IMG/VR virus record: IMGVR_UViG_3300012983_000032
Location: 1-29,792 of that record
Origin: a virus
Taxonomy: Duplodnaviria; Heunggongvirae; Uroviricota; Caudoviricetes
Length of the DNA stretch: 29,792 nt
Strand: one strand, 5' to 3'
Positions 17,182 through 22,204 of this stretch are shown one piece after another. The notes beneath the pieces were generated by a model. That model was not told the DNA's origin. It made no database searches and worked only from the letters and a program-made list of their open reading frames with translations. The stretch's first letter is position 1, and the number at the start of each line of letters is the position of its first letter. The position numbers and the translations under genes were made by a program.

Positions 17182-17577
17182 TTAGCCATACAAACTAATA
17201 TTATTTTCCGTAGAACTTCTTATTAACCTATTATCTTCGTCTAATCCGAAGTTTAATTTAATATTACCCAATTTATTATAAAGTTGGGTAAAACTATACC
17301 ATTGCCAATTTCCTTTTTTATCATCAGCATAGATATCTATTGTATCATGGGACAGATTGAAACAAGCGGTCTGCATAGGTTTTTCCATTGCATATATAGA
17401 AAAATACTGCAACATTTTATTCCCCTTAAACATTGCATTACCTACTGCCCACGAAGTATTAAAATAATATTCTACAAAGTCGTCAGCACTAGAAACGGGA
17501 CTTTCCATAATATCAATTAAAGTTATAAACCCATTTCCTTTTCTTTCCAAAACTTTTAATGCTTTATTGTAAGTCAT
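17182..17577 (-). CDS. Hypothetical protein
   Basis: 131 aa, GAGG RBS, overlaps the upstream MTase stop. Confidence 0.7.
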   Translation of the reverse strand: MTYNKALKVLERKGNGFITLIDIMESPVSSADDFVEYYFNTSWAVGNAMFKGNKMLQYFSIYAMEKPMQTACFNLSHDTIDIYADDKKGNWQWYSFTQLYNKLGNIKLNFGLDEDNRLIRSSTENNISLYG

Positions 17578-18373
17578 TTTGTTTCCTCAAATCTGCTTCA
17601 AGTACTATAGTATCTGCAAAATTATCAAACTTTACAAGAGGCAGTTCAGTAGAAAATCCCTCTGCCCTAAACCTATCTATGCAAGTATTAAAGTACTTTT
17701 CGTCCTTTTCAATTCCTATGAAATTACGGTTAAGTCTTGCACAAGCTACTCCCGCAGAACCACTACCCATACAACTATCAAGTACAGTATCTCCCTCATT
17801 TGTATACGTCTTTATAAAATATTCTGCAGCGGCTATTGGTTTTTGAGTAGGATGAACTGCAGATTTTTGTGTGTCCCACTTAAACTGAATTACGTCTCTT
17901 GGATATCTTTCAGTACTACCACCACCTGAAACGGAGTGTGTTTTACCATAATTTGTGCCGTCGGTGGAGTGTTTAGTAAATGTGTGAACTGGAGTATGAC
18001 CTGTAGTTTTTTGAGGATTATAGGTTGGTAATTTTTTGTAGAAAATTAAAACATTTTCATGGCATTTCATAGGCATACGTTTTGCATTAAGAAATCCCGT
18101 CCCTTTCGTTTTTTCTATAATCCACTCATATCTAAAGTTGTCAGGGTTACTCATAACCAACTGTGCAGAAAAAGGCATTTGACTCCAAAGAGCCACACAC
18201 CCATTATCTTTTAGTATACGGTTATATTCTGCCCATAAGGGTTCTAATGGAATAAGAATATCCCATATGTTTTGAGTTGTTGCATAAGGTAAGTCAGTAT
18301 ATATAAAGTCTACAGACTTATCTTTAATATCTTTCATTATTTTTAAGCAGTCACCATTATAAACTCTTAACAT
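17564..18373 (-). CDS. N4-cytosine/N6-adenine DNA methyltransferase, beta class
   Basis: GDCL, DLPY (motif IV), HPTQKP, VLDSCMGSGS (motif I), GIEKD. Confidence 0.93.
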   Translation of the reverse strand: MLRVYNGDCLKIMKDIKDKSVDFIYTDLPYATTQNIWDILIPLEPLWAEYNRILKDNGCVALWSQMPFSAQLVMSNPDNFRYEWIIEKTKGTGFLNAKRMPMKCHENVLIFYKKLPTYNPQKTTGHTPVHTFTKHSTDGTNYGKTHSVSGGGSTERYPRDVIQFKWDTQKSAVHPTQKPIAAAEYFIKTYTNEGDTVLDSCMGSGSAGVACARLNRNFIGIEKDEKYFNTCIDRFRAEGFSTELPLVKFDNFADTIVLEADLRKQNDLQ

Positions 18374-18374
18374 A

Positions 18375-18875
18375 CTATCTTCTCAATCCAAATGTAATTG
18401 ATTTTGTTCCGTCCTTTTTTATAAATTCCACTTTACCAATTTCACCCTCATCAATAAACTTATAAGTTTCGCCTTTATGGAATTCTTCAAACTCACTTTC
18501 TGGGAAAACAAAACAATCTCTATTAAGAGCATTACCTTGATGAATATTATAGTCAGGAACACCAAGTTTTGCCAATCTTTTTTTAGCAATAGGTACAATA
18601 TTTGCGTCAAGTTCAACCCCAAAAACTCTCTTAGGGTCGGCACCTGCAATAATTGCGGCTGCTAAAAGACCACCAGCCCCACAAGTTGGGTCAAGAATAG
18701 TATCTTCTTTATTAATACTATCAAACTTTTCCAACATTTGAATTGTTAAGGGAGCAGGAGTATAGAACTGACCCAATTTTTGACGTTCTTCTTTTGTTTT
18801 ACCAGCATATTGTTCTGCCTCAAACTCAGCATACTCTTCTTCAATTCTCTTTTTTTGTTCTTCTGTTAATTTCAT
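18375..18875 (-). CDS. N6-methyltransferase-like SAM-binding protein lacking the NPPY catalytic motif
   Basis: GQFYTP, ILDPTCGAGGLL, GVELD, GNAL present; no NPPY/F in 166 aa. Confidence 0.75.
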   Translation of the reverse strand: MKLTEEQKKRIEEEYAEFEAEQYAGKTKEERQKLGQFYTPAPLTIQMLEKFDSINKEDTILDPTCGAGGLLAAAIIAGADPKRVFGVELDANIVPIAKKRLAKLGVPDYNIHQGNALNRDCFVFPESEFEEFHKGETYKFIDEGEIGKVEFIKKDGTKSITFGLRR

Positions 18876-18955: not shown

Positions 18956-20530
18956 CTAACGTCTGATAATCCTACGACCTACTGTAGGTGGTGTTGTTGA
19001 CTGAGCCTGTGGAGTAACATTTACAGTCTGCATATTATCAAAACTAAGTGCAGACGGTGTTGTAACTGAACTCTTTACCTCTGAGGCAGGCGTTTCTGCT
19101 ACAGTTGAACTAGGTTTTACAGTATTCTCTACAAAATGTGTTTTTGCAGGTGCAACAGTATTTGAAATATTACCCTTGCAGTAGTCTACTACCCTACAAA
19201 CCAAAAGTTTATAGTTAGATGGAGACAAGTTTTCAGTTTCTGCAAATTTAACATACTCGTCCCTCAAGTAAGGGAAGTTCTTATGACTTGCAACTGTTTT
19301 TGACTGTTCAATAAAGTAAGTATCCTCACTATCGTAGTAGTTAGCCTTACCGTCTTTTGGTTTAAGAATACTGAAACCAAAAATCTTTTCAAACTCAGCA
19401 TCTGCAGAATACCACTTTTCAATGGCTTCCTTATTATCTGGGTCGGCAAAGAACTTTTCAATAAATTCTTTCTTAGTTTTACCAATATAGTCTACACCAT
19501 ACTTTCCAACCAAAGATTTTTTTGTGTCTTCGTCGATAGTGTCCAAAATAGTTTTAGATTTCATTGGTTTTGGAATACGTCCAAACAAACGATAACTTTC
19601 TGCGTCAGAAATAACTTTGTATGTCAATGCAAAAAGACTTGCAATAGTATTACCATCACCACACATAAGAGTTTGGAAACTATCATCACAAAGGTCACCG
19701 TTAAGGAGTTCCAAAAGAATCTTATAAAACTCGGATTCATTTGTGAGATGGAAGTAATTTCTAATAGCTTCCTCAGAATACATTTCCATATCAATGCACT
19801 GTTCTAGCATTTGAATAGCATTTCTGTAACTTCCACCAGCACCTTTAGCAATTGCATATAATCCCTCACCCTTAAATGTTCGAGGAAGTTTACTCCAAAG
19901 ACCTTCACCGTCAAGAACGTCTTTCATATAGAACATCAACTCAGTTGGTTCTTCTGGGAGAAACATAAAACGCTGACATCTACCAAGAATTGATTTTGGA
20001 AGAGCAGTACCACCATTATCAGTCATAGTTGTCAAGATAACGTGGCAATGTTCTCTAGGTGCCTCAACAGATTTCAAAATCATTTTCTGAGCATCACCCT
20101 TGAACTCTTGTGCCTCTTCAATAATAACTACCTTTTCCTTGTTACCCAACATAGGCATTTTAAGGAAAGTTTCAAGTTCTTGACCAAAAAGTACATTCTG
20201 CTGCATACCAAGTTCGTCGGCTTTTTGTTTAATAACTGCTGGAACAATCTGTTTAACAGTACGGTTAAACTTCTCTTCCATAATTGCCTTACACTCAATA
20301 CACTCACAACAAGGTTCACCATTTGGACCTGGGTGTTCACACACCAACATCTGTGCAAGAATTTGTGCAATTGTAGTTTTACCACAACCTGTTTCACCAA
20401 TCATTGCAATTGCGGCAGGAAAGGGTTTCCCTTTTAGTCTGATATTTTTGAAATAAGTTTTTATTTCATTACAACCGTGAACCTGTTCAAGGGTTCTAGG
20501 TCTCTTAGAAATACTCCACTGTAACATCAC
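18956..20530 (-). CDS. dnaX: DNA polymerase III gamma/tau-like clamp loader ATPase
   Basis: N-terminal KRPRTLEQVHG, GETGCGKT, Zn module CEHP..PCCECIEC, KVVIIEEAQ, ILGRCQ (SRC-like), GSYRNA. Confidence 0.85.
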   Translation of the reverse strand: MMLQWSISKRPRTLEQVHGCNEIKTYFKNIRLKGKPFPAAIAMIGETGCGKTTIAQILAQMLVCEHPGPNGEPCCECIECKAIMEEKFNRTVKQIVPAVIKQKADELGMQQNVLFGQELETFLKMPMLGNKEKVVIIEEAQEFKGDAQKMILKSVEAPREHCHVILTTMTDNGGTALPKSILGRCQRFMFLPEEPTELMFYMKDVLDGEGLWSKLPRTFKGEGLYAIAKGAGGSYRNAIQMLEQCIDMEMYSEEAIRNYFHLTNESEFYKILLELLNGDLCDDSFQTLMCGDGNTIASLFALTYKVISDAESYRLFGRIPKPMKSKTILDTIDEDTKKSLVGKYGVDYIGKTKKEFIEKFFADPDNKEAIEKWYSADAEFEKIFGFSILKPKDGKANYYDSEDTYFIEQSKTVASHKNFPYLRDEYVKFAETENLSPSNYKLLVCRVVDYCKGNISNTVAPAKTHFVENTVKPSSTVAETPASEVKSSVTTPSALSFDNMQTVNVTPQAQSTTPPTVGRRIIRR

Positions 20531-21781
20531 TATACCTCTTTAATATATTTTGATAAATGTTTAATCAATTCCTCAGTGTCATACCAAGGGCACCTAATAG
20601 TACTCAATGGTTCTGTTACGAAATTTGCTGTGGCTTTCTCATAAAAGTCATAAACATAATAGAAGTCCCAACGTTTACCCATACCACTTGGTGAAATATT
20701 AAAATCCAACAGACCTTTTACAATTGCGTCACGAAGTTTAGAATTCTTGTTGAACTTTGAGTCACCCATTACACAAATACTATCTACAATAGTAGAACCA
20801 ATAGTACAAGATAATGAAACAGTGGCATATGGAGAAAGACCCATATCTACAATTGCTTTAGAAATCCAAGTTCCTACCATTGGTAAAAGGAAGTCTGACG
20901 CATGGAAAGGTTTAATGTAAGAACCACCACCACACTGGCACTGTGTATAAATTGGACCAGCAGACATATTATTAACTGCCAATTTGCGACCTGTCATTGA
21001 CGCGTCAGAATGGTAACCGTGGTTTACATAACGACCTGTACCATTTACTATAATTACAGGGTCTTTTGCTGCAACTGTCTTTTTAATAGTTGTGTAAGCG
21101 TGTTCCCCATAAGTATTAGTAGTAAGTTCTACCCATTCCTTGTAAAAGTTTTTTACAATATTATGAATTTCATTACATTTTGTATCTGCACAAGGAATTG
21201 CTACTGTTACGTGTTCAACAGAAATAGGTGTATATCCGTCATTTTTAACTTCAAGAGTAAATACTACCTTAATATCTGAACCCAAGTAAGTAGTTTGTTT
21301 TGCCTTTTTAAAAAGGAAATCACCAAAACTCTGGGCAAGAAACTTAGCTGCACCCTGCCCTGTTGGGGTCATAGAGTCATAACCTGAGAAGAAAAGACCT
21401 TGGTCATTCCAACCTGACTCTCCTTTCTTATCAGTTGTTGCCCTTGCAATATCAGGGGACTGAGCGTGAATTTTATTGATAATTTTTGTATCTTTTGCAA
21501 GATGTACTTGTTCTTTTGAAAACCTTAGTCTTTTATCGTCTGTATACCCACAGTCATTAAAAGACTCCTTTAAAACTTGTTTCAAGAACTTTTTATTAAG
21601 TTTAAGAGTTGTTTTTGCCTCACCACCAAAGATAATAGTGTCGTCACTAGCAAAAACTTCAATAGCCGCATGACTGTTTTCTTTGTCGTTATGCTGAATT
21701 CTGTTAATAAGATTTGCCGCAATCGAATCACACATGCGGTCAGGGATGACCCAAAGTTACGTATTCCGAACTTATGAGCAT
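20530..21781 (-). CDS. metK: S-adenosylmethionine synthetase, requiring a +1 frameshift at codon 13 (21745-21740)
   Basis: GGAGG RBS, ATG 21781, MLISSEYVTLGHP then TGA; the +1 frame continues DRMCDSI. Also GGE, QSPDIA, DQG, GSDIK, VNGTGRY, MTGRKL, GGGS. The ORF track misses the first 15 codons. Confidence 0.9.
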
Positions 21782-22204
21782 GAAAACCTCCTAAAGTATT
21801 ATAAATTTTTCAAAAAATCTGACATATATATTATATGATTTCATTTCTTTTGATGTAATTATATTAACATATTTACTTAAGAAAATATAACATCAAATTT
21901 TTCTTGTAAACTTATGAAATATTAACATTAATATTAAAAACACAAAATAAATTTGTGTTAATATATATTGGTCGGGATTTTGTCCTATAGAAATGCTATA
22001 TTATATGTAGTTGAAAAGAGTTGAGACACGTATCGGTTTAGTGGTTCAACTCCCACCATTACTTATAATTTTTTTGCCAAAATTGGCAAATTATCACATA
22101 AGTATATTAGCGAGTCAATAAAAATCCGAAAAACCTCAAGTTTTTCGGGATTTTATCCGATAAGTAGGCTATATTAAATATACAACATTTGGAGGTATTA
22201 AATT
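21782..22204. promoter_or_regulatory. Divergent control region between the - strand DNA metabolism block and the + strand sigma block
   Basis: About 420 nt non-coding and very AT-rich; GTTAATAT motifs in both directions; palindrome at 22073-22090; hairpin at 22121-22154. Confidence 0.6.

Follow-up and report, generated by a model that had tools for sequence, protein, structure and literature searches.

A one-base insertion in a phage metK gene beside a homing-endonuclease remnant, possibly protective and probably overcome by +1 frameshifting

The window (the whole stretch of DNA analysed, 29,792 nt) belongs to a tailed phage of the Caudoviricetes (IMG/VR record IMGVR_UViG_3300012983_000032), whose 219.5 kb record is about 70% complete and carries 39 tRNAs and a tmRNA; the sequencing runs that hold the stretch are animal gut samples, and runs matching just a minor fraction of its words were left out when the habitat was read. 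Its minus strand carries metK, encoding a methionine adenosyltransferase in two overlapping frames, whose stop adjoins the start of the next gene. Two DNA methyltransferase genes further downstream are likely users of SAM. Upstream of metK lies the remnant of a homing-endonuclease gene, missed in an earlier sequence-only reading of this DNA. The features are:

17564-18373, minus strand: DNA methyltransferase, downstream of metK
18375-18875, minus strand: DNA methyltransferase, downstream of metK
18956-20530, minus strand: clamp-loader-like ATPase, downstream of metK
20530-21744, minus strand: metK +1 frame, from Pro13 to the C-terminus of a 416-aa methionine adenosyltransferase
21707-21781, minus strand: 74-nt tract plus the extra C, probable co-conversion tract, identical in all shifted and the nearest intact alleles
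21733-21735, minus strand: ATG of Met16, 4 nt past the TGA, possible reinitiation site and the start chosen by gene callers (401-402 aa)
21739-21745, minus strand: CCC-TGA-C, putative +1 shift site, CCT-GAC in intact relatives
21740-21781, minus strand: metK frame 0, 13 codons (MLISSEYVTLGHP) plus TGA, covering His12 and the first beta-strand (model residues 2-8)
21749-21752, minus strand: weak GGGT, 3 nt ahead of CCC
21782-21877, minus strand: remnant, 3' end of a free-standing DUF7487 endonuclease gene
21787-21792, minus strand: ribosome-binding site AGGAGG, part of the endonuclease-type upstream sequence
21860-21869, minus strand: TGTTAATATA box within the remnant, probable phage promoter for metK

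From the ATG at 21781 frame 0 runs into CCC-TGA-C, with the TGA at 21742-21740 and the C next, and the extra C falls within the run 21743-21745. The +1 frame reads PDRMCDSI from 21744 and stays open as far as the TAG at 20530, and the slipped product is an exact MetK that keeps all 96 positions found to be invariant or nearly so in an alignment of 36 family sequences. The strong ribosome-binding site and start codon described in the sequence-only reading are indeed present, as is its central observation that a +1 slip rebuilds the GHPD motif. By Pfam the joined product is a methionine adenosyltransferase; in a profile search against solved structures its best match is the Campylobacter jejuni enzyme 4LE5 (E 1e-61, 26% identity), and a model of an intact relative (pLDDT 90) superimposes on 4LE5 with a TM score of 0.81. 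The two share the three-domain MAT fold and most active-site motifs, with GHPD, QSPD, (G/N)DQG and GRK all present in the phage protein, but differ in the GGG..K...K.D motif, where K290 is kept and the second Lys is Ala294. This Ala is invariant across the phage family, intact members included, and substrate or activity may differ in this family.

An insertion that can be undone so exactly is rare. Among all single-base insertions into an intact metK allele, 14/3745 give a stop right after a re-pairable codon together with the exact protein, and within the first 60 nt only 1/175 does so. Homopolymer extensions are commoner than other indels, but of the allele's 254 runs only about 7 qualify. 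The placement of CCC-TGA-C thus exceeds chance expectation. CCC followed by a stop had been cited in the sequence-only reading as a known shift site in phage genes, and the literature bears this out: the Listeria phages PSA, A118 and A500 use a CCC_UGA +1 shift in tsh, and shifting at CCC_UGA reaches 15% in E. coli pheL and 1.9% in Salmonella (PMC5009743). Shift-prone decoding of CCC is a property of tRNA-Pro(UGG), whose +1 shifts are suppressed by m1G37 (PMC4519876). The phage's only tRNA-Pro has the UGG anticodon, with G37, and CCC makes up 47/1614 (2.9%) of the Pro codons in its genome. The GGGT does lie at prfB-like spacing, as had been pointed out, but is not a special stimulator since the intact alleles L003 and L121 share it. 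No 3' stimulatory structure stood out at the shift site (z = 0.15), and a sigma-70 promoter scan scored no better than shuffles. With no strong stimulator found, shift efficiency may be only a few percent. The record's 38-tRNA array with the tmRNA (tag DANSYEDSYAMAA) occupies 172253-187110.

Contigs from three runs of three studies (X5, X6 and the RNA run X8) cross the metK site with no gap there; X8 is a contig, from which level and strand of transcription cannot be read. Together with 23 related loci these contigs rule out an assembly error as the source of the extra C. No close relatives were found in IMG/VR or GTDB genomes, and the close metK relatives were drawn from JGI, ENA and Logan contigs. 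All 23 loci fetched behind short-form MetK proteins (L004-L019 and L114-L120, L114 being the same contig as L004) read CAT-CCC-TGA, and they fall into two lineages about 80% identical in protein. The conservation of CCC-TGA among relatives, raised in the sequence-only reading, is partial, as the intact alleles L001, L003 and L121-123 have a continuous ORF and read CAT-CCT-GAC; the L003 protein shares about 99% identity with those of shifted alleles. The nearest protein cluster (cluster 1, 103 members) is a mix of intact proteins of 416-417 aa and proteins of 401-402 aa that start at Met16, while in cluster 3, about 80% identical to cluster 1, all 13 full-length members are of the short form and the extra C is present in all three haplotypes checked. 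The C accordingly varies within cluster 1, is universal among the cluster 3 members sampled and is missing from most of the family. Every shifted allele of the window's metK family has ATG at codon 16. The window's own metK is a recombinant, of cluster 3 type over about codons 1-115 and nearer to cluster 1 for the remainder, and the RNA contig X8 changes to a divergent type below 21345.

Three shifted haplotypes of cluster 3 give dN/dS of 0.08-0.13 at dS of 0.09-0.12 (p below 1e-8). Their polymorphic codons (38 synonymous, 14 non-synonymous) are scattered over the whole gene, and in the 13 cluster 3 proteins only 1/21 variable residues strikes a conserved position (p = 0.036). Pairwise dN/dS values among L004-L013 (Nd = 0) were set aside, these loci having been fetched by identical protein. 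A dN/dS of about 0.1 in an all-shifted cluster suggests that the product is probably made. The downstream frame is thus under purifying selection in shifted alleles, with the caveat that recombination could have placed a dead 5' end on older diversity dating from an intact period; this alternative is limited by the lack of any intact cluster 3 member among those seen and by the shared endonuclease remnant, which is itself 1-5% diverged and carries an indel. Recent inactivation, which the sequence-only reading had considered equally possible, is unlikely. Since the C is heritable, the downstream frame is constrained and the site is of a kind known to be shift-prone (PMC5009743), metK is most likely read through a +1 slip at CCC-UGA-C. 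We hold with good confidence that full-length MetK is produced by shifting, whatever the driver, and +1 frameshifting would then make the protein on which selection acts. His12, Asp14 and Arg15 of MetK are catalytic residues, and a protein begun at Met16 has none of them and is without the first strand.

In L004 a 387-aa DUF7487 gene lies directly ahead of metK. Its product matches PHROG homing endonucleases (E 1.5e-27) and carries an invariant PD-F...E-x-K motif, and language-model features of its C-terminal part resemble TnsA-like nucleases; a Foldseek structure search with the endonuclease model returned weak nuclease matches only (E 0.013 or worse, none below 0.001). The window's remnant is 85% identical to the L004 gene over the aligned 204 nt, and the stretch upstream of metK in cluster 3 is the same DUF7487 3' end, with 1-5% divergence plus an indel within the cluster. 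The whole gene is found in L004 and L114-116 and the remnant in the window and cluster 3. The box within the remnant has 46 copies in the genome where about 3 are expected. Promoters embedded in endonuclease genes of T4 favour retention of those genes (PMC2988022). Alleles with an empty upstream region have TGGAGG in a different context where the window has AGGAGG. Genes of the DUF7487 family are common in these phages, and the record holds an additional DUF7487-like gene at 109916-110953 and partial matches inside the tRNA array at 178190-178600 and 181404-181715.

The extra C is present in every sampled locus with the endonuclease gene or its remnant (all 5 haplotype groups; Fisher p = 0.26, a non-significant association resting on few haplotypes at loci picked by protein state), and all intact metK loci are empty upstream, with neither gene nor remnant. 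Many loci are empty and yet shifted (L005-L017). The shared tract consists of the first 74 nt of metK with the extra C in its middle, in lineages that otherwise differ at dS of about 0.65. Free-standing endonucleases convert their cut site in more cases than their own gene is passed on (PMC2988022), so that a short identical tract without the nuclease gene is the pattern they leave. IS605/TnpB or other inserts occur at or near the intergenic spot of the endonuclease gene, about 45 nt before the ATG, in L006, L007, L008, L014 and L015 (upstream of metK).

Two further groups of phages carry a broken metK that could be undone in a similar manner:

L020-L025, at about 2885-2897 in L020: sister-clade T11 run, beside a second DUF7487 endonuclease
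L124:2604-2628 and L126-L128 (the same contigs as L129-131 and L141): shifted metK of a second phage family, AGAGGA 3 nt upstream

In the sister clade, about 60% identical, an 11-T run directly past the invariant NDQG breaks metK into parts of 137 + 295 aa, and a DUF7487 gene of 41% identity lies upstream; the pairing of endonuclease records with split-MetK records by equal contig sizes is circumstantial only. All 9 N-terminal fragments have the ending predicted for T11 and none has that for T10, and one such fragment is present on 86 contigs. The 3' halves have pN/pS of 0.06-0.14 in 5/6 pairs, the remaining pair having just two changes, and their variants spare conserved residues (p = 1e-4). 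Runs of at least 9 T are prone to transcriptional slippage (PMC5009743), and the T11 gene is probably read through such slippage or a -1 shift. Among intact proteins of this clade Pro13 is replaced by Ser or Ala in 7/42, as would be expected if the GHPD site were under attack. Intact genes with an altered GHPD (GHSD, GHAD or SHPD; P0009-P0011, P0017, L026-L028, L132, L140, L142 and L158) are possibly other escapes from cleavage.

In the second, unrelated family four IMG/VR contigs read GGA-CAT-CCC-TGA-C at the same GHPD codon. The AGAGGA also occurs in intact relatives of that family, and the family has no Met at the position corresponding to Met16. A progressively eroded insert lies upstream in 3/4 contigs, with a weak homing-endonuclease match in one (E 0.0012), and 10 synonymous and 2 non-synonymous codon differences separate L129 from L130. 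The shared tract in this family could reflect codon bias, since the intact L143 has the same upstream codons. A further candidate, L125, was rejected as a chance pattern match. Of the other metK loci, nearly all from IMG/VR, 154/158 are intact and without the extra C. The shifted pattern at the other invariant Pro-Asp (QSPD) gave 43 matches, none of them metK, which argues that the effect is specific to GHPD among the invariant Pro-Asp pairs.

The explanation we favour, at somewhat better than even confidence, is that the extra C is an insertion that protects metK from the nuclease encoded next to it, with +1 frameshifting making up for the broken frame. It builds on what was observed directly, namely the extra C and its spread, its co-occurrence with the endonuclease gene or remnant among the loci sampled, the tract and the selection. 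A DUF7487 endonuclease would have settled some 30 nt ahead of metK, together with a promoter box and ribosome-binding site of its own, and we infer that it cuts endonuclease-free phage DNA, most likely in or near the invariant GHPD codons. The added C, by turning CCT-GAC into CCC-TGA-C, would spoil the cut site. Peptidyl-tRNA-Pro waiting at the weak UGA-C stop would re-pair from CCC to CCU, so that a fraction of ribosomes yields exact MetK; this slip we infer from the selection on the downstream frame and the known behaviour of CCC-UGA. Break repair may then have copied the C into other phages along with a short tract, the nuclease gene sometimes coming with it and sometimes not. In the window's lineage that gene would later have been lost except for its 3' end, which holds the promoter, while the C stayed. 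A working SAM synthetase of lower output, supplying the phage methyltransferases, is the likely outcome. More tentatively, and with somewhat less than even confidence, we propose that homing has repeatedly targeted invariant metK codons, and that insertions of one or two bases that can be undone in translation or transcription evolved as immunity against an adjacent endonuclease in several unrelated lineages (CCC-TGA-C at GHPD on two or more occasions in phages, and T11 after NDQG in the sister clade).

Other readings of the same observations have to be weighed. The C may have inactivated a dispensable gene and spread by co-conversion or drift, the conserved 3' part being recombined from intact alleles. 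Its polymorphism among alleles about 99% identical, the mosaic nature of the metK genes and the ease of a CC to CCC mutation all fit such hitchhiking, and the host presumably has a metK of its own. We consider it unlikely, however, as there are no intact alleles among the 13 full-length cluster 3 members, where dN/dS is about 0.1; there is no second lesion in the shifted alleles examined (picked as full-length ORFs); and the lesion is one of the rare exactly recodable ones, recurring at the same codon in a second family. A product begun at Met16 and kept for a non-catalytic role or for operon translation is highly improbable: the ATG at codon 16 in all shifted alleles of the window's family and the abutment of the metK stop on the next start would suit it, but the other active-site residues are conserved in a protein that would have lost its first strand, His12, Asp14 and Arg15, the second family has no Met there, and translational coupling alone would not constrain missense changes.

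Two alternatives accept the shift but explain it otherwise. The sequence-only reading had suggested control by SAM, in which low SAM would leave less m1G37 on tRNA-Pro, increase shifting and so raise MetK, or a variant acting through the level of RF2. The suppression of tRNA-Pro(UGG) shifts on CCC by m1G37 (PMC4519876), the single phage tRNA-Pro, the rarity of CCC and the recurrence of the site in the SAM-making gene of another family speak for it, but the C is missing from near-identical intact alleles and from 154/158 other metK loci, the sister clade is split by a T run with no tRNA-Pro involved, and there is no dedicated stimulator; if the site does respond to SAM, that could be incidental. 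Searches for trmD and release-factor genes came up empty in the roughly 70%-complete record. With most of the family unshifted the suggestion is unsupported, and we judge it somewhat less likely than an inactivated, hitchhiking gene; the endonuclease remnant explains the origin and spread of the C better than SAM or RF2 control. A selective or neutral reduction of MetK output, with leaky lesions kept and the endonuclease beside them by coincidence at an insertion hotspot, would account for the many shifted alleles with no nuclease, for the IS605/TnpB elements received at the same intergenic spot and for the general abundance of DUF7487 genes. We rate this lower still, given the short stretch of identity with the C at its centre despite 20% protein divergence between lineages, the position of both splits at invariant motifs, each next to a DUF7487 gene, and the Pro13 to Ser or Ala changes in 7/42 intact sister-clade proteins.

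The protective insertion that we favour works like T4 mobA/gene 60 (10.1101/2022.08.31.505936; PMC5009743) without belonging to that element, as nuclease, gene and recoding signal all differ. In both a free-standing endonuclease adjoins a conserved gene, and a frame-breaking insert at an invariant codon has to be undone in translation and outlasts decay of the nuclease. The T4 insert, reported to block nicking (10.1101/2022.08.31.505936), is a 50-nt bypassed sequence and its nuclease is of the HNH type, whereas that of metK is a single nucleotide that would be overcome by a +1 shift, with no hairpin or known nascent-peptide signal, next to a DUF7487 protein with a PD-(D/E)xK-like motif; the target here is metK, which is not otherwise split, and the protection is putative. 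The Listeria tsh and pheL sites (PMC5009743) share the P-site codon and stop, a low-GC genome and the rarity of CCC, but lie at gene ends and give an extended second product or are incidental, whereas the shift in metK is at codon 13 and is needed for the full-length enzyme. A threat-escaping indel tolerated through low-level shifting also recalls the 'savior' indel of herpesvirus thymidine kinase (PMC5009743), although the threat there is a drug and for metK would be a competing phage's nuclease acting on DNA. No report of a frameshifted phage metK was found in the open-access literature searched.

The best-known comparison is prfB, in which RF2 is made through a programmed +1 frameshift at CUU-UGA-C. 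Both shifts lie early in the gene, at a re-pairable P-site codon followed by a weak UGA-C stop, and both are needed for the full product; metK has only GGGT where prfB has a strong internal Shine-Dalgarno, 3 nt ahead of the slipping codon, its shift is not fixed across orthologues, and feedback by the product lacks sequence support.

The origins of programmed frameshifts have mostly been argued from old, fixed cases. Shifted and unshifted metK alleles one base apart coexist here, with and without the suspected driver, which makes both origin and cost directly testable. Databases list the shifted genes as N-truncated proteins of 401-402 aa or split proteins of 137+295 aa, seemingly dead. For recoding that confers immunity to a nuclease, just one close precedent was found, the bypass in T4 gene 60, and metK would be a one-base and apparently recurrent version of it. 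If the explanation is true, SAM synthesis in these phages would depend on a tRNA-Pro slip that SAM-dependent m1G37 could modulate as a by-product, and a programmed frameshift would have been caught arising from conflict with a selfish element while still polymorphic.
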